NCBI GenBank assembly: GCA_049890295.1
Contig: JBMHBP010000023.1
Location: forward strand, 164,531 to 228,530
Length of the DNA stretch: 64,000 bases
From: Flavobacteriales bacterium
GTDB taxonomy: Bacteria > Bacteroidota > Bacteroidia > Flavobacteriales > UBA7312
Reading direction: 5' to 3'
In this document: piece after piece, positions 2,207-64,000 of the stretch
Position numbering within the stretch: the first letter of the stretch is position 1
Layout: each line of letters starts with the position of its first letter
Notes under the pieces: model-generated
Database searches by the model: none
Told to the model about the DNA's origin: nothing
Seen by the model: the letters and a program-made list of their open reading frames with translations, nothing else
Made by a program: the position numbers and the translations under genes

Positions 2207-3064
2207 CTAGTACTCCCATAAATCGTGTTCCAAGTTAAATATTTCTTCTTTAATTTTTTCGGCTTCAAGAAGTGCATCAATACCTTGTTTGTATTCTTCA
2301 ATTTTACGATCGTATTTATTAGACTCTTTAACAATTCTACTACTAAAGAATCTTTTGTGGAAAATATCATCATATGTTAGACGTGCAGCATCATTTTTTC
2401 TATGATTGAATACTTCTGCCTTAGAAAGAATTTTTCTTGCTTCAGGGAAATAAACCCAGAATAATGAAGATTTTCCGGTATAAACACCATCTTCATTTTT
2501 TCTATCAATTACCGGGCAAATTCCAATAATACGAACTTCCATTACAGAACGTTGTTTATCAAAAAACCACTCTTCTTTGATTCGGTAACTTTTAACTTCT
2601 GACCGTTCAAAGATATTATAGGTTGTATCAAGATAATACTCTTGTAAATCTGGATCAAAACGCTCTTCTACAGACATTTTCTCACCTTCCATAATACCAA
2701 TTAACTCAACCTCTGATGGAGACATTGGTGACTGAAACTCATCATCGTTGGTAGCATTTCCATAGGCGGTAATCGTTCCTTCATTTATAGCTTGCATTAA
2801 GACATCTATTAGATTTTGACGATCATTTATAGGAAGTAGAGGATAATAGAATACTTGATTCATTTTTTCTCTTAGGTCAATGACTCTTTCAATTTTAGTA
2901 GACCACATGACATCGGCCTCTCTAACATGCTGATAAGACTGAATCATTCTTGATTTATCTCCATCACGAATATCCTTTTGGTAAGCACCGTCTAAAATAT
3001 CCTGTGCAGATGATACTTGACTGAAACAAACTAATGCGATTAAAATAATTGCTAATTTTTTCAT
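2207..3064 (-). CDS. gldN: Gliding motility / T9SS periplasmic ring protein GldN (PorN)
   Basis: 285 aa with a signal peptide (MKKLAIILIALVCFSQVSSAQ). It is the last gene of the conserved K-L-M-N order, 10 nt downstream of gldM. Confidence 0.8.
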   Translation of the reverse strand: MKKLAIILIALVCFSQVSSAQDILDGAYQKDIRDGDKSRMIQSYQHVREADVMWSTKIERVIDLREKMNQVFYYPLLPINDRQNLIDVLMQAINEGTITAYGNATNDDEFQSPMSPSEVELIGIMEGEKMSVEERFDPDLQEYYLDTTYNIFERSEVKSYRIKEEWFFDKQRSVMEVRIIGICPVIDRKNEDGVYTGKSSLFWVYFPEARKILSKAEVFNHRKNDAARLTYDDIFHKRFFSSRIVKESNKYDRKIEEYKQGIDALLEAEKIKEEIFNLEHDLWEY

Positions 3065-3074
3065 AATAGTAGTA

Positions 3075-4766
3075 TTAGTTTACTGTAAGTTTTACTGATG
3101 GTAGTGATTTTGGAGCACCATCAGGACCCTTGCATGTAATATTAGTAAAATAGATAACTGATCCAATTTGTAGAGATTCAAACATTGTTTTCATCTCTTG
3201 AGTGACTTTGTTACCTTTTGCATATTTAGTGACTAGTTCGCCACGTTGAGTGACGTCAACTGAAAAGCCAGTAATATTATACTTGATATCAAAAACGAAA
3301 TTTTGAAGTTCTGCATATAGTTTTGCATTACTAGAAAGTAATTGGCTTTTCTTAATTTTTTGATTTTTTGAACCTAAAAATTTTGGCTCTGGTTTTGGAG
3401 TACGCATAACACGGAATTCTAAAGACCCCATACTTCTACGCTTTCCATCAATATCAGCAATCACATTTATTTTTGCTCTACCTGTTTTCTTTGGAAATAC
3501 TTCCCAACCAGTAGCTGCTTTTTTGACAGTACCATTATCACAACTTACGCTGATTTTGTCTCTTGGAACACCGGGTACTGAAACATCAATAGGATTACCT
3601 AAAGCACCTTCTTTTAGTGGGTAGCTTGCAAGTATATAAAACACATTCATCTTTGTAGGTGAGATCACAAGACTCGGCTTAGCAACCTGGTACTCACCAT
3701 TGAATGGATATACTTTCTCACCAGCGTCTGTTTGCATAGAAATAAGACCACCCCATTTTTTATATCCTTGAGAGGAGGTTTTTACGGAATAAATTCCTTT
3801 TCCGGAAACTACAGGTATTGAGTCATAGTCACCAATCATTTGGTATTTTCCATCCTCGCTCATTTCATAATCACCTACCAAAATTACTGGGTTTTGAGTG
3901 GTATCTTTTGCAGCTAAAAATACATCAGCCTTAAAAGAGTCTCCGACAAAAACATAATTAGAAGTAGCAATTTGAATTGCATCAGCTGAAGTAAACTTTA
4001 ATGAACCAGCATCTATCTCTTGCTTAAGGTAATTAATTACGTCAGATTCAGTATTTCTTATGTCTGTTTGAACTTTAGAAAGTAATGTTACTGCAGCAAC
4101 AAGAGGCATATCGAGAAAATTCCTCTCTAACCATGTCTGATCTGCTTTTTTGGCCCCAACGTTTACTTTTTCAACTTCATAACTCATTGTTTCTGAAATT
4201 GATTTATTGAGGAACTCATCATCTAACAAAGTCAAAACATAATCTCTATAGAGTTCAAGATTATCGACTAATTCTTGTCCATTAGTTTCTTTAACAAGGT
4301 AGTTTCCAGCACTAAATCTATCTTTCTTCTTTTTAACATTGATGATATTTTTTTGTTTCTGGGCAGGGGTTAAATCATCATAGCCTATACCCTTGATAGG
4401 TTGTGGTACACCTTCCTGATCTAAATTTTCACCCTCAATTGTCACACCTCCGTCGGCGAGCATTATTAAATTAAATTTTTGTCTTTGAATGAGGTCAACT
4501 ATGGAATCTGACTTTGATTTTACAGTAAAGGCTTTGTCTTTCCATGGGCCTGCTTTTTTGGGATTTGTCTCAGCAGCTAAATTAAATTCATTGTAGATAT
4601 CATCATTTTTCAAACTAAAGTTTTTAGTTGTTTTGACGATACCGTCATTAATTTTAGAAAAGGCGTCCAAAACTTGCTTAGATACATTCAGAGCTAACAG
4701 GGCTGTTAGCACCAAATACATCATACCGATCATTTTTTGTCTAGGAGAAAGATTATTTCCAGCCAT
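3075..4766 (-). CDS. gldM: Gliding motility / T9SS motor-associated protein GldM (PorM)
   Basis: 563 aa. The N-terminus MAGNNLSPRQKMIGMMYLVLTALLALNV is the characteristic GldM single TM helix with a conserved Arg. It sits between gldL and gldN. Confidence 0.9.
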   Translation of the reverse strand: MAGNNLSPRQKMIGMMYLVLTALLALNVSKQVLDAFSKINDGIVKTTKNFSLKNDDIYNEFNLAAETNPKKAGPWKDKAFTVKSKSDSIVDLIQRQKFNLIMLADGGVTIEGENLDQEGVPQPIKGIGYDDLTPAQKQKNIINVKKKKDRFSAGNYLVKETNGQELVDNLELYRDYVLTLLDDEFLNKSISETMSYEVEKVNVGAKKADQTWLERNFLDMPLVAAVTLLSKVQTDIRNTESDVINYLKQEIDAGSLKFTSADAIQIATSNYVFVGDSFKADVFLAAKDTTQNPVILVGDYEMSEDGKYQMIGDYDSIPVVSGKGIYSVKTSSQGYKKWGGLISMQTDAGEKVYPFNGEYQVAKPSLVISPTKMNVFYILASYPLKEGALGNPIDVSVPGVPRDKISVSCDNGTVKKAATGWEVFPKKTGRAKINVIADIDGKRRSMGSLEFRVMRTPKPEPKFLGSKNQKIKKSQLLSSNAKLYAELQNFVFDIKYNITGFSVDVTQRGELVTKYAKGNKVTQEMKTMFESLQIGSVIYFTNITCKGPDGAPKSLPSVKLTVN

Positions 4767-4800
4767 TCGATTTAACTAGGTTTAGGAGTTAATGGTTTTT

Positions 4801-5430
4801 TTATTTGTTATTCATTGCGTTCAACATATTGGCATACATTTTGTTGAGTGCTTCAAGATTTGCTCCAAGTTTGGAAATTTCCAATTGGAATTTTTCTGAA
4901 TCACCAACAGAATTACCCATATTTTGCATGGTTTTAAGCTGTAAATCATAATAAGTATTCATTTCAGCTAATTTTCTGGAGGCTTCGCGCATTTGATCGC
5001 TGTATTCTCCAGTTGCAGATACTGCATCCATTGATTTATTAACGCCTTCTACGGTGTCGTTAAATGCTCTTAAGTTATCTCCAAGTCTAGTGATTAGTGC
5101 CTGATCCACATTAGCATTTTCAAGCATATTATCTAATTCTTGTACAGGTGTTTTTGCAGCACCTGAGGCTGATAATTTTTCATCTGGATCTTTCATGTAT
5201 GCTAATTCAGGATAAACTAAACTCCAATCTGGTTCCTCATGTGGCTTTTCAAAAGCAGAAAAGAAGAAAATAATAGCCTCGGTTGATAGACCAATGGTTA
5301 ACATTGCACCAGCACCTGGCCAGTCCATAAGCTTAAATAATGCACCAAGGATTACGATAGCAGCTCCAAAACCATAAAGCTTTGCCATACCATTTTTAAA
5401 TCTCTTAGAGTTTGGGTTTATTAATGCCAT
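4801..5430 (-). CDS. gldL: Gliding motility / T9SS motor protein GldL (PorL)
   Basis: 209 aa with two N-terminal TM helices (KLYGFGAAIVILGALFKLMDWPGAGAMLTIGLSTEAIIFFFSAFE, including the conserved Glu) and a cytoplasmic coiled tail. Synteny supports the call. Confidence 0.9.
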   Translation of the reverse strand: MALINPNSKRFKNGMAKLYGFGAAIVILGALFKLMDWPGAGAMLTIGLSTEAIIFFFSAFEKPHEEPDWSLVYPELAYMKDPDEKLSASGAAKTPVQELDNMLENANVDQALITRLGDNLRAFNDTVEGVNKSMDAVSATGEYSDQMREASRKLAEMNTYYDLQLKTMQNMGNSVGDSEKFQLEISKLGANLEALNKMYANMLNAMNNK

Positions 5431-5457
5431 AATTTATAAGTGTAAAATATTTAAAGT

Positions 5458-6756
5458 TTATCTAAAATCTGCTTTATCTCTTCCAATGAAAGAAATCACA
5501 TTACGAAATCCTATGTATGATTTTGCTGTATCTTGAAATTCATAATCTCTTGTTCCTACTTGAATAAAGTGTGAGATATCTTTCCATGATCCGCCTCTAA
5601 TGACCTTTCTTTTCAAAATCTCTGGGTCGGTATCTTGAGCATCATAACTGAAATCCATATTCATGTCATGTGAGAAATTAAACGCTGATTCATCGTAAGC
5701 GTTATTTGTCCACTCTGCTACATTACCTGACATATCATAAAGACCAAAGTTATTTGGATTGTAAGAAGCAACTTTTACGGTTTTGATTCCGCCATCAGCA
5801 ACATAATTACCACGTCTAGGCTTAAAGTTGGCTAAAAAACACCCAACTTCATTAGTGGTATAAGGGCCTCCCCAAGGATATGGAGACAAATCTAATCCTC
5901 CACGTGCTGCATACTCCCACTCAGACTCTGTTGGCAGCCTGAACTCATCATGTAAAGGCTCATCACGACTAATTAAATAGTTATCTAAAATATGAGTTCT
6001 CCACTTGGAAAAGGCAACAGCTTGTTTCCAACTAACTCCAACTACTGGATAATCATCAAAAGCTGGGTGATGGAAATAGTTCCTTGACCAGGGGTCATTA
6101 TAAGAATAGGTATAATCTGAAGTCCACACTAATGTATCTGGAAAAATATTAAGCTCTGGTTTTTCTACAAAAACTGAACGATCAATTTTACCTTGGGCCT
6201 TGTTGGCTTTAGTTGAGGCTCTCTGAATATCTACCTCTTCATAGACATAGTTGAATTTTCTTGTATCAAACTCTCTTCTTGAGTAAAATCTTTCATGTTC
6301 GGGTAAGTACATCTCATCTTCGAGCACTTCACGAACCTCAGCATCATCCCATCTGATATTTCTATTCCAGTCGATAATGGGAGGGTCGATAAAGTTACCA
6401 TAATCATCTTCCTCGATTAACTCATAACCTTCAACACCATTCTCACCTAATAAAACTCTAGCTATAGAGTCTCTAACCCAATGAACAAATTGTCGATATT
6501 CATTATTGGTAATTTCAGTTTCGTCAATATAAAAAGCTGCGACAGATACCGTTTTGTGTTGGGTAACGTGTGCATAAGGTACATCTTGATCGCCTGGCCC
6601 CATGTTAAAGCTTCCTTGTGGAATAAAGACCATTCCGTAAGGGTCAGTTGGATTCCAAACAGGGCGGTTCTGAACACCTATTAATTCACCATTTCCAGAG
6701 TTGGAACAAGCTCCAGCTAGGATAGCAATTAAACCTAAGACAAATAAATTTTTCAT
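5458..6756 (-). CDS. gldK: Gliding motility / T9SS lipoprotein GldK (PorK), FGE-sulfatase (SUMF1) fold
   Basis: 432 aa with a lipoprotein signal (ILAGAC|SNSGNGELIGV). FGE/SUMF1-family motifs are present (YPVVGVSWKQAVAF, LPTESEWEYAARGG, GNVAEWT, RGGSW). It is the first of the K-L-M-N genes. Confidence 0.9.
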   Translation of the reverse strand: MKNLFVLGLIAILAGACSNSGNGELIGVQNRPVWNPTDPYGMVFIPQGSFNMGPGDQDVPYAHVTQHKTVSVAAFYIDETEITNNEYRQFVHWVRDSIARVLLGENGVEGYELIEEDDYGNFIDPPIIDWNRNIRWDDAEVREVLEDEMYLPEHERFYSRREFDTRKFNYVYEEVDIQRASTKANKAQGKIDRSVFVEKPELNIFPDTLVWTSDYTYSYNDPWSRNYFHHPAFDDYPVVGVSWKQAVAFSKWRTHILDNYLISRDEPLHDEFRLPTESEWEYAARGGLDLSPYPWGGPYTTNEVGCFLANFKPRRGNYVADGGIKTVKVASYNPNNFGLYDMSGNVAEWTNNAYDESAFNFSHDMNMDFSYDAQDTDPEILKRKVIRGGSWKDISHFIQVGTRDYEFQDTAKSYIGFRNVISFIGRDKADFR

Positions 6757-6799
6757 AATTCTTGTTTTTACCTCTAGCGAGGGTTTGTATTTTCTCTCA

Positions 6800-6835
6800 A
6801 AGCCACAAAATCACCACTGTAAAAATAGTGATGAT
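6800..6835 (-). terminator. Stem-loop with U-tract between porP and gldK (possible attenuator or partial terminator)
   Basis: The minus-strand RNA would read AUCAUCACU-AUUUUUAC-AGUGGUGAU-UUUGUGGCUUU, a 9-bp stem with one G-U pair followed by a U-rich tract. It sits in the 112-nt gap between the porP stop (6869) and the gldK start (6756). Confidence 0.35.
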
Positions 6836-6868
6836 TTGATTTAGGAAAGTCACAAATATAATAAACTT

Positions 6869-7774
6869 TTACAGATATCTAGGATTTTTATACCCTTTGA
6901 AAACCTTGTTGTAATCTATTTTGAAACAATACCCCAACATAAACTCAATACTACCAGCATTGGACACGTTTGTTGTTGGAATATCATATGAAACTCCAAA
7001 TTTCAAATCATCATTTATATGCATACCTAATAATAACACAGCTCGCGTACTTGGTCTATATGTAACTCCTCCCCATAACTTTTTATTGTATTCTAATAGC
7101 GATGTTAAATCAACGGTTGTTGTCACACCCTCAGTTTTGGCTAAAATTGATGGTTTTAAATCAATCTTTTCACTCAATGCATGTATGTAGCCTGCCGTAA
7201 GATAATAATGACGTTTTATATCTAGTATATCAATAGATGTTGAGATAGTAGGCTCATTTAAATGCTTTGATGAAATACCTACATACACCTTTTCTGAATT
7301 AAAATACAAGCCTGCTCCTATATCTAAACCTGATGCTTTTTCATCTGTAGTAGGAATTGAAGGGTCTGGAGTTTCAGTAATGATACTACTACCATCAATT
7401 CCATCTTGTATAACGCCTACCGAAACACCAATTCCTAAATTTCCACCAGCTAGTTCAAGTCGATAAGCATAGGATAAGTTTAATGACAAAAACTCATTTT
7501 GAGCTATTTTGTCAGTAATAACATTGAGCCCTAGACCACCATTCAATAAACGAACTGGACTTTCAACTGATAAATTTGTAGTTGTTGGTGCATCTTCAAA
7601 TCCTACCCACTGCGACCTATGTAATGCGGTTGCGCAAATTGCTTGTTCGCTTCCAGCAGATGCAGGGTTGAAAGCTAATTTATTGAATAAATAATGACTA
7701 AATTGAGGATCTTGTTGAGCTTGAGATAAAATCGTCATCTTTAGCAACAGGAAAAGTAAAAAGTATTTTTTCAT
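6869..7774 (-). CDS. porP: T9SS outer-membrane protein, PorP/SprF family
   Basis: The mature N-terminus QQDPQFSHYLFNKLAFNPASAG is the PorP/SprF signature, and the rest shows beta-barrel-like alternating sequence. The track ORF starts at 7801. I prefer the internal ATG (MKKYFLLFLLLKMTILSQAQ), which gives a normal signal peptide. Confidence 0.85.
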   Translation of the reverse strand: MKKYFLLFLLLKMTILSQAQQDPQFSHYLFNKLAFNPASAGSEQAICATALHRSQWVGFEDAPTTTNLSVESPVRLLNGGLGLNVITDKIAQNEFLSLNLSYAYRLELAGGNLGIGVSVGVIQDGIDGSSIITETPDPSIPTTDEKASGLDIGAGLYFNSEKVYVGISSKHLNEPTISTSIDILDIKRHYYLTAGYIHALSEKIDLKPSILAKTEGVTTTVDLTSLLEYNKKLWGGVTYRPSTRAVLLLGMHINDDLKFGVSYDIPTTNVSNAGSIEFMLGYCFKIDYNKVFKGYKNPRYL

Positions 7775-7867
7775 AAGAGATAACGTCAAATCATTTATCA
7801 CATTAATATTCGGCTAAAATAACTATTTTTTTTTAGTGCTAAAAGAAATGTTATTATCGTCAAAAGT

Positions 7868-50742: not shown

Positions 50743-50744
50743 GA

Positions 50745-51212: not shown

Positions 51213-51312
51213 TATTTTCTCAATATCATTTGAACATGATGAAAATAGTGCAGACAGTATAAAAATATATACTAATGAAGTAATAATATGTTTTAAAGGT
51301 ATTATAAATGCT

Positions 51313-52623: not shown

Positions 52624-52626
52624 TGT

Positions 52627-54571: not shown

Positions 54572-54666
54572 AATTTGAAAGTTCAAATTTAATAAAAGCA
54601 AAAGCGTAAATAAAATTATTTAGAACAATAGAATTTTTTTTACATTTGCACCCACTTTATTGAAAT

Positions 54667-54739
54667 GGTGCTATAGCTCAGTTGGTAGAGCAAAGGACTG
54701 AAAATCCTTGTGTCCCCGGTTCGATTCCTGGTAGCACCA
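54667..54739 (+). tRNA. tRNA-Phe (anticodon GAA)
   Basis: The sequence is GGTGCTA-TA-GCTC-AGTTGGTA-GAGC-A-AAGGA-CTGAAAA-TCCTT-GTGTC-CCCGG-TTCGATT-CCTGG-TAGCACC-A. The cloverleaf folds by hand, with one apparent C-U mismatch in the T stem as I read it. CCA is not encoded. Confidence 0.9.
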
Positions 54740-54742
54740 CGT

Positions 54743-55786
54743 TCATTCAACCCTCTCACTTAATGGTGAGAGGGTTTTTTTGTAGTCAATATCAAATATT
54801 TCTTTTTCAAATAAATTAGAGATTTTTGAATAAATCAGTTGTTCTATTGTACAATTGAATGCCATTTTTATGGGCTTTGAGTTTAGCCAATTGAAAAATG
54901 TATGTTTAGTGTATTGATTCAGACTATTAATCGACATTATGCCTAACAATTTTAAAGCTTTTACATTACAATATTGCTCATACTGATTAGCTAGTGGAAT
55001 AACTAGTAATCGTTTTCCTAAAAATAGTGCTTCAGATGGGGTTTCAAAGCCAGCATTGCAAACTACTCCGTAGCATGAGGCTAAACTTCCAACAAAACCT
55101 TCGTTAGAAACTGGTTTAAAAACCACGTTGCCTTTCCTATACTCTGACTTTACTTGTGGAGCAAATACATGAAAATCATAATATGTAAATGATAAGAAAA
55201 AAGACAGTAATATATCATTGTTTAAGTAAGGCAGGTAAACCGTAATATGTGATTGTTCAGTAACTGTTATTTCATATAATTTTTTCTTGATGATAGGCTC
55301 TGAAATATTTGCTGAGTACGATTTGAAATGCAAGCCTATATAAGTAGTAGTAGGTGAAAAATATTTAATTATAAACTCTGCAAAAATATCTTTACGAATA
55401 GGTCTTGGTGTAAACTCGGAATAAAAAGAAGCTTGATGACTTATTTGTATCGATTTTAACTTATTAAGTTTAGCTCCCCAAGCGGTAATTGGCTCAAAAT
55501 CAGAAATTATCAAATCATATTTAAAAAATGGAAGTGTAAAAATATCTTTTAAAAAAGTATAGAGTCGAAGACACAACAAGGACTGCCACAGATCTATCTT
55601 TCCGTTTTTTGTTACAAACGAAATACCTGTTTTATGGAATTTTATTGGGAAAGACGGTCTTAAACTATAGTTTTTGGCTGAAACCAATACATCAACTTGA
55701 CCATATTTTTTTAATAGAGGGTATATTGTTTCGGCTTTACTGATATGACCATTTCCTGTTCCCTGAATACCGTATAATATTTTCAT
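54743..55786 (-). CDS. Glycosyltransferase (GT-B, MurG/UDP-glycosyltransferase-like)
   Basis: 347 aa. The N-terminus is MKILYGIQGTGNGHISKAETI (a G-rich loop typical of this GT-B group) and the C-terminal half has GFETPSEALFLGKRLLVIPL. It overlaps the lpxH-like gene by 4 nt. Confidence 0.75.
   Translation of the reverse strand: MKILYGIQGTGNGHISKAETIYPLLKKYGQVDVLVSAKNYSLRPSFPIKFHKTGISFVTKNGKIDLWQSLLCLRLYTFLKDIFTLPFFKYDLIISDFEPITAWGAKLNKLKSIQISHQASFYSEFTPRPIRKDIFAEFIIKYFSPTTTYIGLHFKSYSANISEPIIKKKLYEITVTEQSHITVYLPYLNNDILLSFFLSFTYYDFHVFAPQVKSEYRKGNVVFKPVSNEGFVGSLASCYGVVCNAGFETPSEALFLGKRLLVIPLANQYEQYCNVKALKLLGIMSINSLNQYTKHTFFNWLNSKPIKMAFNCTIEQLIYSKISNLFEKEIFDIDYKKTLSPLSERVE
54751..54781 (+). terminator. 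Rho-independent terminator after tRNA-Phe
   Basis: A 9-bp stem ccctctcac (54751-54759) / gtgagaggg (54766-54774) with a 6-nt loop, followed by 7 T. It overlaps the 3' end of the convergent glycosyltransferase ORF. Confidence 0.75.
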
Positions 55787-56598
55787 TTTATAAGCTCATT
55801 AATTAATCTAAAATCAAGCTCATCGATTTCTTCAAAATTTAAAGAAGCATTATCTATAAAATCCTCGTGATAATTAAAAATTCTCCAATTACCCTCATGA
55901 TATTCTACAGCTGTTAAACTTTCTACCCAATCTCCTGAATTTAGATATACTACTTTACTGTCCTTTATTTTAATTTCTTTAATTACAGCTTGATGAATAT
56001 GACCGCATGCTACCATTTCATAACCGTTTTCGATAGCTATTTCAGCAATAGTACTTTCAAAATCGCTAATAAACCGAACTGCTTTCTTAACGCTATTTTT
56101 AATTTTTCTTGAAAATGAAACCCTTTCTTTTCCAAGTTTAAATAATATTTGGTTTAAAAATCTGTTAAGAACAATTAAAAAGTCGTATCCAATACCACCA
56201 AGTTTGGCTAACCATTTTGTTCTTTTCATAGTGAAATCAAATATATCACCATGAAAAATCCACAACTTTTTATTTTCTATGTTAAGCACCAATTTATTTT
56301 TAAAATGTAGTTTACCAAGTGATAGTGGTGTGAACTTTCGGAGTAATTCATCATGGTTACCTGAAATGTAGTATACAGTAGTTTTTTTACTGGCTAAATC
56401 AATCAGTCGTTTAACAACTTTCATATGTGATTTTGGCCAATAACGTTTTCTAAACTGCCATATATCTATTATATCACCATTAAGGACTAATATTCGTGGC
56501 TGTATGGAATTTAAATAATTCAGTAGTTCTAATGCATGACATCCATAGGTGCCTAAATGAACATCTGAAATGATAACTAAATCAACTTTTCTTTTCAT
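55783..56598 (-). CDS. lpxH: UDP-2,3-diacylglucosamine diphosphatase-like metallophosphoesterase (LpxH family)
   Basis: 271 aa with calcineurin-like motifs ISDVHLG, LNGDIIDIW, ISGNHDE and GHIH. Size and motif spacing fit LpxH. The symbol is tentative. Confidence 0.7.
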   Translation of the reverse strand: MKRKVDLVIISDVHLGTYGCHALELLNYLNSIQPRILVLNGDIIDIWQFRKRYWPKSHMKVVKRLIDLASKKTTVYYISGNHDELLRKFTPLSLGKLHFKNKLVLNIENKKLWIFHGDIFDFTMKRTKWLAKLGGIGYDFLIVLNRFLNQILFKLGKERVSFSRKIKNSVKKAVRFISDFESTIAEIAIENGYEMVACGHIHQAVIKEIKIKDSKVVYLNSGDWVESLTAVEYHEGNWRIFNYHEDFIDNASLNFEEIDELDFRLINELIK

Positions 56599-56697
56599 AA
56601 TTGCAATAAACCAATTTTGAAAAGTAGAAGTGTTTATTTTAAGACAACTAATTATTAATATTACTAGTTGAAAATCTAGACTTATGTAAAATAAAAA

Positions 56698-57531
56698 TTA
56701 AATTATTTGCTTGAGGTCGCTCAACAAATCATATTGTTCTTCTGTCAAGTTATCAAAAATAACGCCAGCTAATTTAATTTTCTTTCTGTCCTTATCGATA
56801 TTCCAGTAACTTGATTGAAGATTACTTTTACCATCATATTCGATATTTTCAAGCATGTATCTAATTGCATTTAATCGTGCTGTAAGTTTATTATTGGCAT
56901 TGATAACAATCCAAGGGCAAAATTTTGATGATGTTTTTTCAAACATTTGGTTCTTAAAATAGGTGTAAAGCTTCCACTTTGATAATGATAACAAGTCATT
57001 TTTTGAAAGCTTCCAATATTTCAATAAGTGGTTACGCCTTACATGAAACCGCTTTAACTGAGTATCTTTATCGATTGATAGATAAAACTTAATGATAATT
57101 AAACCATCTTTGATTAACTTTTTTTCCCAACTGTTGACCTTTGACATAAAGTATTGATACTGTGATTGAGTGCAATAACCCATAGTAGGTTGAACCATAG
57201 CTCTTGAATACCATGAACGGTCAAAGAAAACTATCTCACCATTTTTAGGCAACCTTTTTTCATAGGTTTTGAACCACGATTTATTTTGCTTTTTAGTAGG
57301 TGAACCCAATTCAACAACTCGGTGATGTTTACTCATAAGATTCTCAACAATTCGCTTGATTGCTGATCCTTTTCCTGCTGCATCTCTTCCCTCAAAAACA
57401 ATAGCAATTCTTTTATTTTCCTTGAGTACCCATTCTTGCAATTTTAATAGCTCAACTTGTAGTCTAAACTTTTCATTCTGATATTCAGAATCAGATATAT
57501 TTTCAAAAGCTGAGTAATATTTAATGCTCAT
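56698..57531 (-). CDS. ppk2: Polyphosphate kinase 2 (single-domain PPK2)
   Basis: 277 aa with Walker A FEGRDAAGKGS, FDRSWYSR, the lid region KFYLSIDKDTQLKRF and WKLSKND. Confidence 0.88.
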   Translation of the reverse strand: MSIKYYSAFENISDSEYQNEKFRLQVELLKLQEWVLKENKRIAIVFEGRDAAGKGSAIKRIVENLMSKHHRVVELGSPTKKQNKSWFKTYEKRLPKNGEIVFFDRSWYSRAMVQPTMGYCTQSQYQYFMSKVNSWEKKLIKDGLIIIKFYLSIDKDTQLKRFHVRRNHLLKYWKLSKNDLLSLSKWKLYTYFKNQMFEKTSSKFCPWIVINANNKLTARLNAIRYMLENIEYDGKSNLQSSYWNIDKDRKKIKLAGVIFDNLTEEQYDLLSDLKQII

Positions 57532-57551
57532 AATGTATTAATAAATAGTAT

Positions 57552-57995
57552 TCAATTTAATTTTAAAGATAAATAAGCCTTTATTACTGGTTTAACATAA
57601 TGCCTAGAATATTTAGCATATAGTTTGAAATTTGATATTGAAACCCAATGAGCATCCTCAATAGATTCATCTGCAGCAGGGAATAGACTTAAATCATCAT
57701 TATCGTATCTCATTAAAAACCACTTTACTTTTTTTTTGATGGTCTTACCACTCTTTTTAGTAGTATATTTCGTTGAAATTAATGGTTTTATTAGATTTAG
57801 ACTAGCCTCATTTACACCTGTTTCCTCTACCACTTCTCTTAAAGCAGCACTTTCGATAGTTTCATTAGGATCAAGCTTACCCTTTGGTAAGTCCCATAAA
57901 TTTTTTCTGTAAATCAATAAAATTTCGTTATGCTTATTAAAAACTAACCCTCCCGCTGTAATTTGCTTCATTTTAAAATCAAGTTCAGAAATCAT
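57552..57995 (-). CDS. NUDIX hydrolase
   Basis: 147 aa with the Nudix box GKLDPNETIESAALREVVEETGV. Its stop lies 20 nt upstream of the ppk2 start. Confidence 0.88.
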   Translation of the reverse strand: MISELDFKMKQITAGGLVFNKHNEILLIYRKNLWDLPKGKLDPNETIESAALREVVEETGVNEASLNLIKPLISTKYTTKKSGKTIKKKVKWFLMRYDNDDLSLFPAADESIEDAHWVSISNFKLYAKYSRHYVKPVIKAYLSLKLN

Positions 57996-58265
57996 AATGT
58001 AAAAGTGCGTTTTATTTTAATTAAAGTGAGATGAGTGAAAATTATTTTTAAACATGATTTTATTAAAACAACATACAAATGAACAACATATTATCATTTG
58101 TAGAGAGAAATGAGTATTATTAAATAATTAATAAATTGAATACGTTGTTACTATTGTAGTTTTGAGTAAGACTATTAAATTCTACATTAATAAATGGTTA
58201 CGTATTTGAATGGATTTAATACCTTTGCTGAGCAATAATTATGTCACTAAGAATTAATTTTGAAA

Positions 58266-59078
58266 ATGAAAACCTTTTCTGTATTGTTCGTTTGTTTTAG
58301 TTTTATTCAACTAAATGCACAGATCGTTATTTCTGAATTTTTATACAATGATCCTGGCTCAGGCAATGATAGTTTAGAATTTATTGAGTTATACAACTAC
58401 ACTGATTCTGATTTAGAATTAACCAACTACTCAATTTCAGACGGTGTATCCTTTACATTTCCTCAATACACTCTAAATTCTAAGTCGTATGTAGTAATTA
58501 GTAAGTATCCAGAAACACTTAAAAGAGTTTTTAATATCACAAACGATAACCTTTTTGCTTGGTCAGATACAGGATCTGTTTCTCTAAACAACAATGGTGA
58601 AATCATACAACTATCTAACTCATCAGGCGTAGTCGTTGATGAGGTAGAGTATTTTGCTAATGCCGAATGGCACGATAGTCAAGCCGATGGTGGGGGTTAC
58701 TCTATCGAAATTTGTGATTTCAATATTGATAATAATATTGGTGCAAATTGGACTGTATCGCCACAAACCGGGAATTTTATATACACAGGATTTGACCCTA
58801 TTATAGAAGATCAACTAACTTCATTTAATGTATACGCCTCACCTAATACTGGATGCTTTACCACTAACAATATTTTTAATTTTCATAACACATTTTCGGG
58901 TAAAAATACCTTCACAAATTATTTAAATGTTCCAAAAAACAGCAAGATATTTAATATAAATGGTCAGCATGTTTACACCACAAAATCTACTAATGAAGTT
59001 GTACAAACATCACATTGGAGAAAAGGAATTTATGTGTTAAAAAATGAACAAAATTTACTTAAAATATTCAAATATTAA
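58266..59078 (+). CDS. Small secreted lamin-tail-domain (LTD) protein with a probable T9SS CTD
   Basis: It has a signal peptide (MKTFSVLFVCFSFIQLNAQ). The LTD reads VISEFLYNDPGSGNDSLEFIELYNYTDSDLELTNYSISDG...NNNGEIIQLSNSSGVVVDEVEY. The C-terminus KIFNINGQHVY...WRKGIYVLKNEQNLLKIFKY is CTD-like. The start is set at the ATG 6 nt inside the track ORF (58260, TTG). Confidence 0.7.
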   Translation: MKTFSVLFVCFSFIQLNAQIVISEFLYNDPGSGNDSLEFIELYNYTDSDLELTNYSISDGVSFTFPQYTLNSKSYVVISKYPETLKRVFNITNDNLFAWSDTGSVSLNNNGEIIQLSNSSGVVVDEVEYFANAEWHDSQADGGGYSIEICDFNIDNNIGANWTVSPQTGNFIYTGFDPIIEDQLTSFNVYASPNTGCFTTNNIFNFHNTFSGKNTFTNYLNVPKNSKIFNINGQHVYTTKSTNEVVQTSHWRKGIYVLKNEQNLLKIFKY

Positions 59079-59224
59079 GAGATTGTTAATTAAACCTTAA
59101 TTAAATATTAAACACGCCTTTTAGAAGCCAATTTTTTTAACTTTTTTTTATTTTAATTTTTTTATTTCATAACTAACACTTACATTGTAGGACTTAATTT
59201 TAAGCAAACCAAAACAATTAATTT

Positions 59225-62200
59225 ATGAAGCGAATTTTTATTCTAGCATTGTTGTTTATTTCTACACTCAGCTTTGCACAAATTCCATTAACTTCACAAG
59301 GTTTTGAAGGCGAAGGTGATTGGACCTATTCCACTTACCCATCATTTTACGATTTTTCACAAAATGGTGATGCTTTTACAATTTTGAGTACACCGTATCA
59401 GACCATGAGTGCTGCTACTGGCAATTCTTATGTTGTATTTCATGACCTGCAGAATCCTAATGGAAACCCCCCTTTAGATGGTAATTACTACCATTATTTA
59501 ACGATGTCTACGATTGTGGTTCCACAGCCGTCACCATCTGATTTGAAACTATCATTTAACTATTTTGTTGATGGATTTCACTCCTCAGATTACATGGGCT
59601 ATGAATTACAATTTAATGATGACACAACCTGGCATAGCAACTGGGATTCATCATTAGACACCACTCACGATTTTTCAGCTTATCTTTCTAAAGAAACTGA
59701 TGGTTTATGGGTCAATGAAGTTATTGATTTACCAGACACCATTTCTTATCTTAGATTTAGAATTGGAGCAAAACAAAATGGTGATGACTGGGCTGGACTA
59801 GATGATCTAATGCTATTCTATGATGCAGGTGATTTTTTAGCTCCAAGTGTGGTTACAGCTAGTATTGCTGATAATCAAACAATTAACCTCACCTTTTCTG
59901 AAGAAATTCAAAATGCTAATGTAGAGGTAGAAGGTTACACAGTTGACAACTCCTATATTGGAGCTAATGGCAACGACTTAGTTGTTGTACTAACTTCTTC
60001 ACTTACAGATGGTGATTATTTCAGCGTTAATGTAACTGAGGTTACAGACCAAGCAGGTAATGTTGGCACCGAAGTAGTTGAGAATTTAGTTCACAATAAT
60101 CATCAAGGAAATCTTGTGGTAACCGAAGTAAACTACGATGACCCGGGACAATACAACAATCTAGCATATTTTGAGATCTTTAACAATGGTAATTCAGCTT
60201 ATCCATTAGGAGGGTTAGCTTTTAACCAAGGTATAAATATTGTATTCCCAGAGTATTCCTTAGGCGTTGGTGAATATGTTATTATCGCTAGACCAGCATT
60301 TTTCCAGAATGACGAATGTGGCGCATTAACATACGGTTGTGGTTTCCAATCCTATTTTGGATTTGCACCTGACTTTGAAATTTCATCAGGCTATTTAAGC
60401 ACAGGTGGTGAAAATCTAGTTTGTGTTAATACAACTGATGAGGAAGTAATTAACTTCACCTATGACGATACAAATGGATGGCCAGAAATTCCATCTGGTA
60501 CAGCCTACTCTATCAACCTTTGTGACCCGACTACCGATATGAATGACGGAAGCAATTGGACACTATCTTCATCTTTCCAGACAGCAGTCGAATCTTCTGA
60601 TGCTGTACTTTCTCCATTAGGTTTGGCCGGTTTTACTCAATATTATGCCGATCCTGGCACATCATGCCCTGGAGAAGAAGCTATTAGCGGTTGTACAGAC
60701 CCACTAGCTTGTAATTATGATGCAAGTCTTGGAGCTACTTCAGATGATGGTTCTTGTATTCTTCCTAATGACTGCGGTTCTTGTGAAGGTGACTTATCCT
60801 GTTTATTAAGTGTTACTGTTTCAGTAGATATGTCTGTCGAAGGTTTTGATCCAACAGATGGTATTGATTATGATGGTCTTGACGGAACTACTATGGCTAT
60901 AAGAGTCGATGGTGGTTCATGGCAAGCAATGTCAGATGACGATGCAGATGGTGTATGGACAGCCACTCTATTGGTTTTACCAAATAATACTTACTCATAC
61001 AATTTTAATGATGGAGTTGGTAGTGGTTATGAATCAGGAAATAGTTTAGAAGAATGCGGTGATGGCACTTACGGAAATGATAGAACATTCACAGTAGACT
61101 CTACAGACTTAATAATAGCAACAGTATGTTGGGAATCTTGTGATGTCTGTCCTGAAAATATACCAGGCTGTACAGATGAAACAGCCTCTAATTACAATTC
61201 TGCTGCAACTGAAGATGACGGCTCTTGTCACTACCCAGTTCCCATGCAGAATTTATTTTTCTCAGAATATGCTGAAGGAAGTAGTAATAATAAATATCTA
61301 GAAATTTATAATGCAAGTTCAGAAACAGTAAGCTTAACTGACTATGCAATGCCTAATGTCTCTAATGCTCCATCAGTAGTTGGAGAGTATGAATATTGGA
61401 ATACATTTGATGAGGGTGCAGAGATTGCTCCAAACGGAATTTATATTGTAGCACACCCATCTGCTGACCCATCAATTTTAGCTTTAGCTAACATGACACA
61501 TTCATATTTAAGTAATGGTGATGACGGTTATGCTTTAGTTTATGGTACACAAGACGATTTCGTCATATTGGACTTTATTGGTGATTTTAATGGTGATCCT
61601 GGAAGTGGATGGGAAGTTGCTGGAGTTTCAGATGCAACAAAAGATCATACCTTAGTTAGAAAGTGTTCGGTAGAGTCTGGTAATACTGACTGGACAGCGT
61701 CTGCTGGAACAAGTACTGATGATTCAGAATGGATTGTTCTTGATCAAAATGACTGGACTGACTTAGGTTCACACACATCGGTTTGTCCAACAGTTTTAGG
61801 CTGTACAGATTCTGAAGCTAGTAATTATGATGCTAGTGCTACAGAAGATGATGGATCATGTGAATACCTAGTAATTGAGGGTTGTACAGATTCTGATGCT
61901 AGTAATTACAATCCAGATGCTAATCAGGACAATGGCACTTGTGAATATCCGCCATCATACTCACTCACAGTCACTGTAGACATGAGTGTTGAAGGCTTTA
62001 CTGCCGGAGATGGATCTACTTGGGATGGACTTGATGGTTCATCAATGGCTGTTAGACTTAACAGTGGTATGTGGGCAGCTATGACAGACATGGGAGATAA
62101 TGTTTGGAGCTACACATTTACTGAATTAGTAGCTGGAGATTATACTTACAATTTTAATGACGGCTGGTACGAATCAGGACCATTCGGTGATTGTGTAGGT

Positions 62201-64000
62201 GGCCAATATGGTAACGATAGATTAGTTTCAATTACAGATGCTGATGTTATCATGCCAACAGTATGCTGGGAGTCTTGCGAAGCATGCCCAGATGTAATAT
62301 TAGGATGTACGGATACAGCAGCTAATAACTATGATGTAACAGCTACAGAAGACGATGGCTCTTGTACATATCCTGCGCCAATGGCTAATTTATTCTTCTC
62401 TGAATATGCCGACCCTGCGTCTGCTTATTCAAACAGATACCTAGAAATCTTTAATCCTGGTGATACTGAAGTTAACCTTGCCGACTATGCATTCGCTAAC
62501 GTTTCAAATGCACCAACTGTTGTCGGTGAGTATGAATATTGGAATACTTTCTCCGATGGTGCTACTATTGCTGCAGGTGGTGTATATATTATAACAAGAG
62601 ACGATGCAGAATCTGCTATACTTGAATTATCCAATCAAACACATAACTTTTTAAGTAACGGTGATGATGGTTATTGTTTAGTATATGGTACGCAAGACAG
62701 CTATCAAGTATTAGACTGTATTGGTGATTTTAACGGTGACCCAGGCTCAGGCTGGGATGTTGCTGGAGTAAGTAGTGCTACAGCCAACCACGTTTTAGTT
62801 AGAAAATGTTCAGTAACAGAAGGTAACGATGGAAACTGGACAACTTCTGCTGGCACAAATGAAGAAGATTCAGAATGGATTGTTCTAGGTGATGTTTATG
62901 ACGGATTAGGATCGCATATTTCACCTTGTGCTTCAATTTTAGGATGTACTGATTCAAATGCTAGTAACTATAACGCTTCAGCCACAGAAGATGACGGGTC
63001 TTGTGAATATGCAATCACAACCTATTCATTGACTGTTTCAGTAGACATGAGTATTGAAGGCTTTACTGCCGGAGATGGTTCTACATGGGATGGATTAGAT
63101 GGTTCATCAATGGCTATTAGACTTAATGATGGTATGTGGGCAGCTATGACAGACATGGGAGATAATGTTTGGAGCTACACATTTACTGAACTAGAAGCTG
63201 GAGATTACACTTACAATTTTAATGACGGCTGGTACGAATCAGGACCATTCGGTGATTGTGTAGGTGGCCAATATGGTAACGATAGATTAGCTTCAATTAC
63301 AGATGCTGATGTTATCATGCCAACAGTATGCTGGGAGTCTTGCGAAGCATGTCCAGATGTAATATTAGGATGTACGGATACAGCAGCTAATAACTATGAT
63401 GCAACAGCTACAGAAGATGATGGCTCTTGTACATATCCTGCACCAATGGCTAATTTATTCTTCTCTGAATATGCTGAAGGTAGTAGTAATAATAAGTATT
63501 TAGAGATTTATAATCCAAGTGATGTTACTGTTAGTTTAGCAGATTATGCATATCCTAACGTTTCTAACGCCCCTTCAACGGTAGGTGAATATGAGTATTG
63601 GAATACCTTCGACGCAGGCGCAGAGATTGCAGCAAATAGTATTTATATTATAGCTCATGGCTCATCTGATGAAACAATACTAGCATTAGCAAATGAAACA
63701 CATAACTATTTAAGTAATGGTGATGATGGATATGCTTTGGTATACGGAACAGAAGATAATTATGTTGTTTTAGATCGTATAGGTGATTTCAATGGAGATC
63801 CAGGATATGGTTGGGAAGTTGCAGGTGTAAGCAATGCAACAAAAGATCACACTTTAGTACGTAAGTGCTCTATTGAGCAAGGTAATTCAGATTGGACAGC
63901 ATCTGCTGGAACAAATACTGATGATTCAGAATGGATTGTTCTTGAACAGAACGATTGGTCTGATTTAGGAATGCATACAGTGGAGTGTCCTACTCCAACT
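59225..64000 (+). CDS. Giant modular secreted protein: N-terminal jelly-roll-like domain, Ig-like domain, at least 4 LTDs, 3 CBM-like beta-sandwich domains and 7 short Cys motifs. It is incomplete and continues past the window end.
   Basis: It is absent from the ORF track because there is no stop before 64000. Hand translation from the ATG at 59225 begins with the signal peptide MKRIFILALLFISTLSFAQ and is open for all 1592 codons to the window end. LTD signatures (LFFSEYAEGSSNNKYLEIYN...NGDDGYALVYG...DHTLVRK) recur. Confidence 0.85.
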   Translation, partial: MKRIFILALLFISTLSFAQIPLTSQGFEGEGDWTYSTYPSFYDFSQNGDAFTILSTPYQTMSAATGNSYVVFHDLQNPNGNPPLDGNYYHYLTMSTIVVPQPSPSDLKLSFNYFVDGFHSSDYMGYELQFNDDTTWHSNWDSSLDTTHDFSAYLSKETDGLWVNEVIDLPDTISYLRFRIGAKQNGDDWAGLDDLMLFYDAGDFLAPSVVTASIADNQTINLTFSEEIQNANVEVEGYTVDNSYIGANGNDLVVVLTSSLTDGDYFSVNVTEVTDQAGNVGTEVVENLVHNNHQGNLVVTEVNYDDPGQYNNLAYFEIFNNGNSAYPLGGLAFNQGINIVFPEYSLGVGEYVIIARPAFFQNDECGALTYGCGFQSYFGFAPDFEISSGYLSTGGENLVCVNTTDEEVINFTYDDTNGWPEIPSGTAYSINLCDPTTDMNDGSNWTLSSSFQTAVESSDAVLSPLGLAGFTQYYADPGTSCPGEEAISGCTDPLACNYDASLGATSDDGSCILPNDCGSCEGDLSCLLSVTVSVDMSVEGFDPTDGIDYDGLDGTTMAIRVDGGSWQAMSDDDADGVWTATLLVLPNNTYSYNFNDGVGSGYESGNSLEECGDGTYGNDRTFTVDSTDLIIATVCWESCDVCPENIPGCTDETASNYNSAATEDDGSCHYPVPMQNLFFSEYAEGSSNNKYLEIYNASSETVSLTDYAMPNVSNAPSVVGEYEYWNTFDEGAEIAPNGIYIVAHPSADPSILALANMTHSYLSNGDDGYALVYGTQDDFVILDFIGDFNGDPGSGWEVAGVSDATKDHTLVRKCSVESGNTDWTASAGTSTDDSEWIVLDQNDWTDLGSHTSVCPTVLGCTDSEASNYDASATEDDGSCEYLVIEGCTDSDASNYNPDANQDNGTCEYPPSYSLTVTVDMSVEGFTAGDGSTWDGLDGSSMAVRLNSGMWAAMTDMGDNVWSYTFTELVAGDYTYNFNDGWYESGPFGDCVGGQYGNDRLVSITDADVIMPTVCWESCEACPDVILGCTDTAANNYDVTATEDDGSCTYPAPMANLFFSEYADPASAYSNRYLEIFNPGDTEVNLADYAFANVSNAPTVVGEYEYWNTFSDGATIAAGGVYIITRDDAESAILELSNQTHNFLSNGDDGYCLVYGTQDSYQVLDCIGDFNGDPGSGWDVAGVSSATANHVLVRKCSVTEGNDGNWTTSAGTNEEDSEWIVLGDVYDGLGSHISPCASILGCTDSNASNYNASATEDDGSCEYAITTYSLTVSVDMSIEGFTAGDGSTWDGLDGSSMAIRLNDGMWAAMTDMGDNVWSYTFTELEAGDYTYNFNDGWYESGPFGDCVGGQYGNDRLASITDADVIMPTVCWESCEACPDVILGCTDTAANNYDATATEDDGSCTYPAPMANLFFSEYAEGSSNNKYLEIYNPSDVTVSLADYAYPNVSNAPSTVGEYEYWNTFDAGAEIAANSIYIIAHGSSDETILALANETHNYLSNGDDGYALVYGTEDNYVVLDRIGDFNGDPGYGWEVAGVSNATKDHTLVRKCSIEQGNSDWTASAGTNTDDSEWIVLEQNDWSDLGMHTVECPTPT
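60827..64000 (+). repeat. Tandem in-frame super-repeats of about 1.07-1.15 kb (CBM-like domain, Cys motif, LTD, Cys motif) inside the giant ORF; at least 3 copies, the last truncated by the window
   Basis: The unit landmark gaYatgWSt (DMS) occurs at about 60827, 61979 and 63044. Copies 2 and 3 are nearly identical over about 440 nt (61979-62420 vs 63044-63485). Copy 1 is more diverged. Confidence 0.85.

Follow-up and report, generated by a model that had tools for sequence, protein, structure and literature searches.

The 64,000-nucleotide (nt) stretch of a Flavobacteriales bacterium analysed here (GCA_049890295.1, contig JBMHBP010000023.1), called the window throughout, ends in a pair of genes on the forward strand whose products carry lamin tail domains (LTD). 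The first encodes a small LTD protein of 270 amino acids (aa), and the second, after a spacer of 146 nt, is a large open reading frame (ORF) at 59225-64000 (+) that comprises 1592 stop-free codons and continues past the window end. Both had been pointed out in an earlier note on this DNA, which described a small LTD protein followed on the same strand by an ORF of at least 1592 codons that the ORF track had missed. The small protein was recovered as an ORF with a Pfam LTD match, and re-translation of the large one revealed neither a stop codon nor a frameshift, the frame being open over 4776 nt. The ORF list omits the large gene solely because it runs off the window, and the chance of 1592 stop-free codons is about 1e-49 given the base composition of the stretch. 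As suggested by our analysis, the large protein is very probably a secreted, non-enzymatic type IX secretion system (T9SS) cargo, and we lean towards reading it, from its sequence and modelled folds, as an adhesin fibre that lacks catalytic activity, binds glycans multivalently and is exported by that system.

Module boundaries were remapped with hidden Markov models (HMMs) built from the window's own modules. The features of the gene pair are listed below, where CTD stands for C-terminal domain.

58266..59078 (+): small LTD protein, 270 aa counted from the ATG (272 aa from a possible TTG start at 58260)
start of the small protein (+): signal peptide, MKTFSVLFVCFSFIQLNA then cleavage before Q, read by inspection
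about 58314-58652 (+): LTD of the small protein (Pfam LTD, E 1.2e-17, 64.7 bits)
about 58905-59075 (+): T9SS type A CTD of the small protein (TIGR04183 / Por_Secre_tail)
59225..59278 (+): Sec signal peptide of the large protein (aa 1-18), MKRIFILALLFISTLSFA then cleavage between SFA and Q, by eye
59282..59839 (+): N-terminal jelly-roll domain (aa 20-205), from AlphaFold and Foldseek
59840..60100 (+): Ig-like domain of Big_5 type (aa 206-292), sub-threshold Pfam Big_5
60101..60670 (+): LTD1 (aa 293-482), canonical subtype (LVVTEVNYDDPG...YFEIFN), Pfam LTD
60671..60802 (+): Cys-rich linker (aa 483-526) with one degenerate Cys loop, from Cys positions and the HMM map
60803..61159 (+): beta-sandwich 1 (aa 527-645), from alignment A1
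61166..61234 (+): Cys loop (GCTDETASNYNSAATEDDGSC), from a regular expression and DNA repeat family D3
61229..61780 (+): LTD2 (aa 669-852), ExeM-like (LFFSEYAEGSSNNKYLEIYN), extended at its C-terminus by about 70 aa, Pfam LTD and NCBIfam ExeM
61799..61948 (+): two tandem Cys loops (aa 859-908), from the regular expression, DNA repeats and HMM map
61952..62296 (+): beta-sandwich 2 (aa 910-1024), the modelled module, from AlphaFold, Foldseek and HMM
62303..62371 (+): Cys loop, from the regular expression and DNA repeats
62366..62923 (+): LTD3 (aa 1048-1233), ExeM-like; holds the best Pfam LTD stretch, aa 1053-1137
62942..63010 (+): Cys loop, from the regular expression and DNA repeats
63014..63361 (+): beta-sandwich 3 (aa 1264-1379), 93% identical to sandwich 2
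63368..63436 (+): Cys loop, from the regular expression and DNA repeats
63431..63994 (+): LTD4 (aa 1403-1590), ExeM-like; holds the best NCBIfam ExeM stretch, aa 1409-1584; the window ends two codons on

On the HMM map itself, the N-terminal domain occupies aa 20-205, the Ig domain 206-292, LTD1 290-482, sandwich 1 526-645, LTD2 669-852, sandwich 2 910-1024, LTD3 1048-1233, sandwich 3 1265-1379 and LTD4 1403-1586. After LTD1 the large ORF thus consists of three units, each made of a Cys loop, a beta-sandwich of about 115 aa, a second Cys loop and an ExeM-type LTD, and the underlying DNA repeats with a period of 1059-1143 nt. The signal peptide, judged by eye, has a basic n-region and a 12-residue hydrophobic core, and the orthologues show the same pattern. 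The architecture read by hand in the earlier note (signal peptide, jelly-roll or MAM-like N-terminal domain, Ig-like domain, LTDs, CBM20/48-like sandwiches and Cys motifs) was borne out in all its parts. So was the absence of a catalytic domain from the 1592 visible residues, with which Pfam agrees both here and in the complete orthologues, which measure 2043-2180 aa; nor did Pfam detect any OB-fold, EEP or other nuclease domain in the window ORF or in those orthologues. The protein is extremely acidic, with 253 Asp and Glu residues to 27 Lys and Arg and, across the 1592 aa, a net charge near -226; every module is acidic. It contains 43 Cys residues that fall in even-numbered sets per module. 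Charge and Cys pattern fit an extracellular, disulfide-bonded protein that would not bind polyanions directly. The O-glycosylation motif of Bacteroidota, D[ST][AILVMT], was not enriched (6 found, 10 expected).

The repetitive structure of the gene could also reflect an assembly artefact, in which units were collapsed or duplicated, or a gene in decay. The repeats, with a period of about 1.06-1.14 kb, reach 93% nucleotide identity, an independent assembly of practically the same organism breaks inside sandwich 2, and the orthologous gene at one locus (L014) is frameshifted. We consider this explanation very unlikely, since the frame stays open despite the repeats, the other assembly matches the first 993 aa at 99% identity, four complete orthologues on long contigs display the same kinds of module in a similar order, and the frameshift of L014 lies behind a C5 homopolymer, which suggests a sequencing error. 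The independent assembly, a Flavobacteriales metagenome-assembled genome (MAG; GCA_049889755.1), encodes an identical small LTD protein and a protein (P0001) 99% identical to the large one over aa 1-993, where its contig ends. Because of that contig end, the first 993 residues are corroborated and the repeat count beyond aa 993 comes from the present window alone; an artefact would affect the repeat count at most. In L014 the gene calls split the giant gene in two, one part of 1578 and the other of 600 aa. The split is due to the 1-nt frameshift (at 14700-14780), which lies in a polished long-read contig immediately behind the C5 run where a sandwich module begins and is probably a long-read sequencing error; its repair yields a single ORF of 2180 aa.

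The remainder of the large gene was sought with an exact 35-mer of the window end, which was unmatched in metagenome contigs. Protein P0314, considered as the missing C-terminus, was rejected as it belongs to another genome and another context. Scanning metagenomes with the small LTD protein turned up distant LTD proteins alone, of at most 44% identity. The giant ORF (59500-64000) has a GC content of 0.37-0.41, compared with 0.27-0.34 in the flanking genes (50000-59000 compared), and a positive GC skew. The raised GC content probably reflects a composition rich in Asp, Gly, Ala and Thr, acquisition from elsewhere being the alternative.

Complete orthologues were identified among database proteins (P0002/P0003, 2043 aa; P0007, 2089 aa) and at two further loci, L007:9941-16435 on a 1.76-Mb contig (2164 aa) and the repaired L014 gene. 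All of them end alike, in Cys loops, a SprB-like repeat recognised by eye, three fn3-like domains and a T9SS CTD of type A (Por_Secre_tail E 3.5e-13 in P0002 and 7.2e-13 in P0007; the CTD is present in L007 as well). The number and order of LTDs and sandwiches vary among the orthologues. The closest complete relative is L014, whose N-terminal domain is 73% identical and which shares the upstream PPK2 gene and the small gene with LTD and CTD. By analogy with these orthologues, some 600 residues of the present copy would lie beyond the window. One lineage carries inserts resembling Kazal-type inhibitors between its Cys loops (PF00050, E 1.7e-5; L007:13300-13900, P0007 aa 1186-1208) and TSP3-like, Asp-rich Cys segments ahead of the stalk.

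The stalk, about 480 aa long (P0002 aa 1558-2043; L007:14984-16432), recurs with 60-90% identity in many other T9SS cargo proteins. The heads that share it include true CBM20/48 proteins (P0239, a paralogue encoded on the same contig as P0002, and P0293, P0287, P0247 and P0244; CBM, carbohydrate-binding module), a glycanase with Glyco_hydro_cc and CBM6 domains (P0288), an M43 peptidase (P0298) and cupredoxins (P0232). This distribution suggests that the stalk may serve as a common display pedestal with exchangeable heads.

Export by T9SS, predicted for the present copy, is well supported for the family, by the type A CTDs of the orthologues, the CTD of the small protein and the PorP/SprF and GldKLMN genes in the window. 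For the CTD of the small protein, the TIGR04183 score of 24.3 bits exceeds the cutoff (23), and Pfam Por_Secre_tail gives 24.7 bits, which narrowly misses its cutoff of 27. The secretion genes, whose products are the expected exporter of both LTD proteins, form one operon:

2207..7801 (-): T9SS core operon with porP/sprF, gldK, gldL, gldM and gldN
6869-7801 (-): porP/sprF (PorP_SprF, E 4e-70)
5458-6756 (-): gldK (FGE-sulfatase fold, GldK-like, E 5.5e-49)
4801-5430 (-): gldL (GldL_N, E 7e-31)
3075-4766 (-): gldM (all four GldM domains)
2207-3064 (-): gldN (GldN, E 5.5e-73)

The same evidence lends support to the earlier candidate function of a giant T9SS adhesin or polymer-binding fibre. Two further genes for CTD-bearing cargo lie within the window. 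One, at 37171-38988 (+), encodes a PPAD-like enzyme of 605 aa, predicted to be secreted, with a Porphyromonas-type domain of peptidyl-arginine/agmatine deiminases (PAD_porph E 5.9e-32) and a T9SS CTD (E 6.9e-8), and the other, at 29290-30993 (-), a very acidic protein of 567 aa in which the T9SS CTD (E 3.6e-10) is the sole recognised domain, the other 490 or so aa being unmatched. A gene of the UDP-glucose/GDP-mannose dehydrogenase family (866-2131) follows gldN.

A giant repetitive T9SS cargo might also be an adhesin for gliding or for surface tracks, akin to SprB and RemA and one that the gliding machinery carries along the cell for holding on to surfaces and travelling across them. SprB and RemA of Flavobacterium johnsoniae are likewise very large, repetitive and non-catalytic T9SS cargo proteins with lectin or adhesin function, and gldKLMN with a PorP/SprF gene are present in the window. 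The SprB-like repeat (by eye) at the base of the orthologue stalk, the Pfam SprB matches of some stalk-sharing proteins and the divergent neighbour of the orthologues in L007 and L012, a GEVED protein that also has SprB repeats and a type B CTD (CHU_C), point the same way. However, the orthologues carry a type A CTD (Por_Secre_tail) and combine LTDs, CBM20/48-like modules and Cys loops, whereas SprB has a type B CTD and arrays of SprB repeats, and Pfam detects no SprB repeats (PF13573) in the visible 1592 aa or in P0002. No sprF-like gene stands next to the giant gene, the only PorP/SprF gene of the window being located 51 kb away in the porP-gldKLMN operon. Furthermore, the host is apparently a planktonic MAG with a small genome (contigs of relatives measure 1.36-1.76 Mb), and small-genome planktonic lineages often lack gliding. 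A gliding adhesin is accordingly an improbable identity for this protein.

The beta-sandwich modules are among the pointers to a glycan ligand. Sandwich 1 is 53-54% identical to sandwiches 2 and 3, and the latter two are 93% identical to each other at both protein and nucleotide level. The AlphaFold model of sandwich 2, made with an alignment of 12 modules (pLDDT 78.7, pTM 0.75), has the beta-sandwich fold of starch-binding domains: its best Foldseek match in the PDB was the CBM20 of STBD1 (8x8k, E 2e-4, TM 0.58/0.66), followed by domain E of CGTase, the starch-binding domains of beta-amylase and glucoamylase, CBM25 and the CBM48 of AMPK beta. The fold is thus shared with CBM20 (STBD1, CGTase domain E, glucoamylase), CBM48 (AMPK beta, SIP2, the N-domain of isoamylase), pullulanase X25 and CBM25. 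Profile chaining led to the same clan, the sandwich HMM giving weak matches in P0019, P0024, P0244, P0108 and P0063 that coincide in 5/5 proteins with Pfam calls of CBM_48, AMPK1_CBM, X25_BaPul_like or CBM_20. The module of P0019 aligns with the CBM48 of AMPK beta and SIP2 across the glycan site NNW...YKF...W (E 5e-4 to 2e-3). In the CBM48 of AMPK beta, glycan is bound by two Trp residues (in NNW and GQW) and a Lys (in YKF). Transferred via P0019 and alignment A1, in which the loop alignment is uncertain, both aromatic platform positions of this site appear to be retained, as Trp in sandwiches 2 and 3 and as Tyr in sandwich 1. In addition to the shared fold, the window sandwiches possess a family-specific insertion of about 13 residues (DGLDGSSMAxRL) and a C-terminal disulfide motif, VCWESCxxCP. 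By fold search and profile chaining the sandwich is therefore placed, at the level of modelled structure, as a diverged member of the CBM20/CBM48/X25 starch-binding clan, which agrees with the "CBM20/48-like" label it had first been given, and the modules could plausibly bind a ligand.

The N-terminal domain, at the tip of the predicted fibre, also resembles carbohydrate-binding folds. Its AlphaFold model has a pLDDT of 64.8, with residues 68-183 at 70-86. Foldseek matches in the PDB comprised CBM61 (E 6.6e-6), the cleaved-adhesin domains K3 and K1 of gingipain Kgp (E 4e-5 to 3e-4), the hyaluronan-binding CBM70 and MAM domains (E about 3e-4 to 3e-3). The jelly-roll is thus common to the window domain, the gingipain/HagA cleaved-adhesin domains (Kgp K1, K3), CBM61, CBM70 and MAM (E 6.6e-6 to 1e-3), and the gingipain domains as well reside in T9SS cargo. 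In contrast to these families, the window domain has no family membership at sequence level and its model confidence is moderate, and in contrast to the gingipains its jelly-roll forms the N-terminus of a protein that is not a protease. Pfam returned no match, MAM (PF00629) included, for 11 aligned N-terminal domains, and the N-terminal profile gave nothing significant against PDB sequences; in one relative (P0062), the homologous region has weak sub-threshold matches to MAM and Reelin-subrepeat-B. The Ig-like domain that follows matches Pfam Big_5 (PF13205) at aa 209-279 with E 0.0028 and 18.8 bits, under the cutoff of 23.6, and the homologous domain of P0002 reaches 35.7 bits.

An exhaustive HMM search revealed 284 relatives of the N-terminal domain, 141 of them at E <=1e-10. 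Ten relatives were scanned with Pfam, and nine bear a T9SS CTD. Several are ordered jelly-roll, Big_5, LTD and so on to the CTD; others have choice-of-anchor I or Calx-beta domains. Given the CTDs and the repeated domain order, the N-terminal head is a recurrent cassette of T9SS cargo.

The genes that follow the giant gene at two out of three complete orthologous loci bear on the ligand as well. In L012 and L007 the giant gene is followed, after 126 nt and after 38 nt to the called start, respectively, by a conserved cluster that encodes a probable outer-membrane barrel (624/645 aa), a 556-aa protein of no known family and a lipoprotein, and that lacks SusC/D (L012:14259-21998; L007:16474-20561). 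The L012 sequence, which reaches further, additionally encodes a CBM30-like protein, a beta-glucanase of glycoside hydrolase (GH) family 16 and a TIM-barrel hydrolase resembling clan GH-A. Judged by its gene content, the cluster may be a non-canonical beta-glucan utilisation locus. The association is supportive and is confined to one lineage, since the giant gene of L014 is followed by housekeeping genes; the GH16 cluster was for that reason dropped as a definer of the giant protein's function.

These observations help to weigh another explanation for so acidic a protein, namely that it is a structural coat, a dense layer of acidic fibres possibly cross-linked by Ca2+, which forms a glycocalyx-like barrier or a decoy for phages or grazers and whose CBM-like folds are structural only. 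The high content of acidic residues, the scarcity of Lys and Arg, the variable number and order of modules among orthologues, the sharing of the stalk by many surface proteins and the lack of a catalytic domain would all suit a coat. Conversely, a coat would not account for the conservation of the aromatic CBM48-site positions in the sandwiches, the CBM- or adhesin-like tip domain or the glycan-utilisation cluster that adjoins the gene in two orthologous loci, and nothing points directly to self-assembly. We hence regard a purely structural role as quite unlikely.

The LTD model of Pfam (PF00932) matches the large ORF in four stretches, at E 3.1e-36 and with 124.5 bits where the cutoff is 34.3, which makes it a member of that family. 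Two subtypes of LTD can be distinguished, a canonical one (LTD1 and the LTD of the small protein) and an ExeM-like one (LTD2-4). The ExeM-like LTDs are 65-82% identical to one another, LTD2 and LTD4 being 82% identical, and carry an extension of about 70 residues; LTD1 shares 27-31% identity with them (alignment A3). PDB sequence searches with LTD4 and with LTD1 found nothing significant. The earlier proposal that the LFFSEYAEGSSNNKYLEIYN-type signature resembles the N-terminus of ExeM found support in the NCBIfam ExeM model (NF033680), which matches by its positions 24-174 of 884 only (E 9.5e-31, 106.6 bits). Membership of the ExeM/Xds nuclease family itself was rejected, as the score falls far short of the cutoff of 1300 and the OB-fold and EEP regions are unmatched. 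ExeM of Shewanella, Xds of Vibrio cholerae and NucH-type proteins (NF033680, COG2374) are secreted like the window protein, and LTD2-4 share with them the LTD type and its extension. They differ in having an OB-fold (YhcR-like) and an EEP nuclease domain, both missing from the window protein, in having a single LTD instead of at least four in alternation with CBM-like modules, and in their export by GlyGly-CTERM/rhombosortase or the type II secretion system, where T9SS is expected here.

This likeness suggests a further role, in which the fibre binds or scavenges extracellular DNA (eDNA): the ExeM-type LTDs would hold DNA at the surface, perhaps via divalent cations, for separate nucleases or phosphatases and so contribute to phosphorus scavenging. 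Besides the match of LTD2-4 to the LTD region at the N-terminus of ExeM, one relative (P0017) is labelled at its source as COG2374, the group of the "predicted extracellular nuclease", and three others (P0019, P0024 and P0108) combine LTD or CBM48-like modules with OB-fold/DUF5689. Genes for PPK2, a NUDIX hydrolase and a metallophosphoesterase are found just upstream on the opposite strand. Deletion of the LTD from ExeM has been reported to slow DNA degradation in vitro (PMC6085458). On the other hand, the LTD was dispensable for the nuclease activity of ExeM in vivo and for both activity and localisation of Xds (PMC6085458, PMC6746945). The window ORF and the complete orthologues are devoid of OB-fold, EEP or nuclease domains, the modules other than LTDs have carbohydrate-binding folds, and the acidity of all modules disfavours direct binding of a polyanion. 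Of the two polymers that had been named as candidate ligands, polysaccharide thus gained support and eDNA lost it, the latter being disfavoured by the acidity and by the lack of an OB-fold or nuclease domain, and we judge a DNA-binding fibre unlikely.

Bacterial LTDs, in the words by which PMC6085458 cites Mans et al. 2004, co-occur with oligosaccharide-binding domains and in tandem arrays. Our literature search brought up no characterisation of the giant LTD/sandwich family and treatments of bacterial LTD function only via ExeM and Xds. The earlier note had stated that no protein alternating LTD and CBM-like modules was known to be described. The statement went somewhat too far, for many uncharacterised T9SS proteins that combine LTD and CBM48-like modules are already present in the databases (e.g., P0018, P0019, P0024 and P0063), where the relatives go either as "hypothetical" or under the name "lamin tail domain-containing protein".

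The Cys loop, C[TI]D..A.N[YF]...DDGSC or in fuller form CTDxxAxNY(N/D)xxAxxDDGSC, spans 20 residues from Cys to Cys and occurs in six strict copies (61163-63435) and one degenerate copy. Of 55 proteins brought up by a search with the entire ORF, 49 contain it as well, among them giants that are otherwise unrelated, several of which are without any Pfam domain. Pfam and NCBIfam hold no model that matched it. Since it marks nearly every domain boundary, we read the loop as a disulfide-closed linker.

Taken as a glycan-binding adhesin fibre, the large protein would be a disulfide-rich, extremely acidic surface structure of a streamlined marine Flavobacteriales bacterium. It would first be exported by Sec, with cleavage of the signal peptide between SFA and Q, and then handled by T9SS through a type A sorting domain situated beyond the window. 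The fibre would be displayed on the cell surface, and possibly released, atop the stalk of about 480 aa with its SprB-like repeat and three fn3-like domains. From the cell outward, the predicted order is the stalk, then the repeated units (in each a Cys loop, a starch-binding-like CBM, another Cys loop and an LTD), and farther out LTD1, the Ig domain and, at the distal tip, the jelly-roll of the CBM/cleaved-adhesin type. The tip and at least three modules of the CBM20/48 clan could provide multivalent, low-affinity binding of neutral glucans, whether dissolved or carried by algal cells or particles, and the Ig-folds of the LTDs together with the 20-residue disulfide loops would act mainly as rigid spacers. 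Such a fibre may tether the cell to sources of polysaccharide or concentrate polysaccharide at the surface for degradation. Surface anchoring, glycan binding, the identity of the ligand and the spacer role of LTDs and Cys loops are what we infer here.

Several points weigh against the glycan-binding fibre. None of the Pfam CBM models PF00686, PF02922, PF16561 and PF22058 matches the window ORF at E <=0.1, and the sandwich profile gave no significant match to PDB sequences (AMPK CBM, E 0.9). The fold matches of the sandwich and the tip, as obtained with the models, are moderate (TM 0.5-0.66, E about 1e-4), and model confidence is low both in part of the sandwich, a family-specific insertion, and in the first 66 residues of the tip. 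In alignment A1 the Lys of the CBM48 site (W-K-W) is replaced by Asn (YNF) in the window sandwiches. The CTD is assigned to the present copy by analogy, its C-terminus being outside the window. The housekeeping genes that follow the giant gene of L014 leave no GH16 neighbourhood there. Finally, the LTD has proved dispensable in ExeM and Xds.

In its function, a glycan-binding fibre would resemble giant T9SS adhesins. It would also resemble non-enzymatic surface proteins with several CBM or Ig-like domains on display, for instance the surface glycan-binding proteins of polysaccharide utilisation loci in Bacteroidota and Sas6 of the Ruminococcus bromii amylosome. The layout for polysaccharide capture is similar, and the orthologues in L012 and L007 adjoin a glycan cluster (GH16 being seen in L012). 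Unlike those proteins, the window protein is not a lipoprotein and is not encoded beside susC/susD; it is expected to be anchored by T9SS, is far larger and has its CBMs interleaved with LTDs. A bolder proposal is that the array of LTDs and starch-binding-like modules on a shared stalk represents a distinct class of T9SS "fishing-line" glycan receptors, which in streamlined planktonic Flavobacteriales replace or precede capture of the SusC/D type and in which the LTD is specifically functional, for example in Ca2+-dependent ligand binding or fibre-to-fibre association. We hold this to be a doubtful extension of the glycan-binding fibre.

The small LTD protein, with its own signal peptide and CTD, would be a second T9SS cargo, perhaps made from the same transcript as the large one. 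An orthologue of its gene immediately precedes the giant gene in L002, L003 and L014; in L008 and L009 the distance upstream is about 2.6 kb, and none was found in L004-L007, L010 and L011. To judge by these gene orders, the pair is conserved in the closest relatives only. Co-transcription of the two genes is possible. No terminator-like hairpin was found between them, and the Bacteroidota -7 motif TAnnTTTG occurs three times upstream of the small gene and not at all in the 146-nt spacer. Because this motif is no more frequent in the window than expected (96 occurrences against 97), its positions are weak hints of co-transcription at most. At 54743-57995 (-), upstream of the small gene, lies a block that encodes a NUDIX hydrolase, the polyphosphate kinase PPK2, a metallophosphoesterase and a glycosyltransferase; it is partly syntenic in L002, L003 and L014.

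The components of the large protein are recognisable and giant non-catalytic T9SS cargo is a known kind of protein; current understanding is not overturned. The analysis exposes several widespread and poorly annotated modules, namely the CTDxxAxNY...DDGSC loop, the N-terminal jelly-roll family with 284 representatives and the stalk of about 480 aa. Repeats of ExeM-type LTDs free of a nuclease could help to test the function of bacterial LTDs beyond the work on ExeM and Xds, and if the proposed class of fishing-line receptors holds true, these repeated, isolated LTDs would offer a tractable set for settling that function. Marine Flavobacteriales are leading consumers of algal polysaccharides, and how small-genome planktonic lineages find and hold their substrate is poorly known. 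A T9SS fibre of more than 2000 residues, with diverged starch-binding-like modules, a CBM-like tip and a pedestal shared with true CBM20/48 heads and glycanases, would be a plausible device for attachment or capture in such bacteria.

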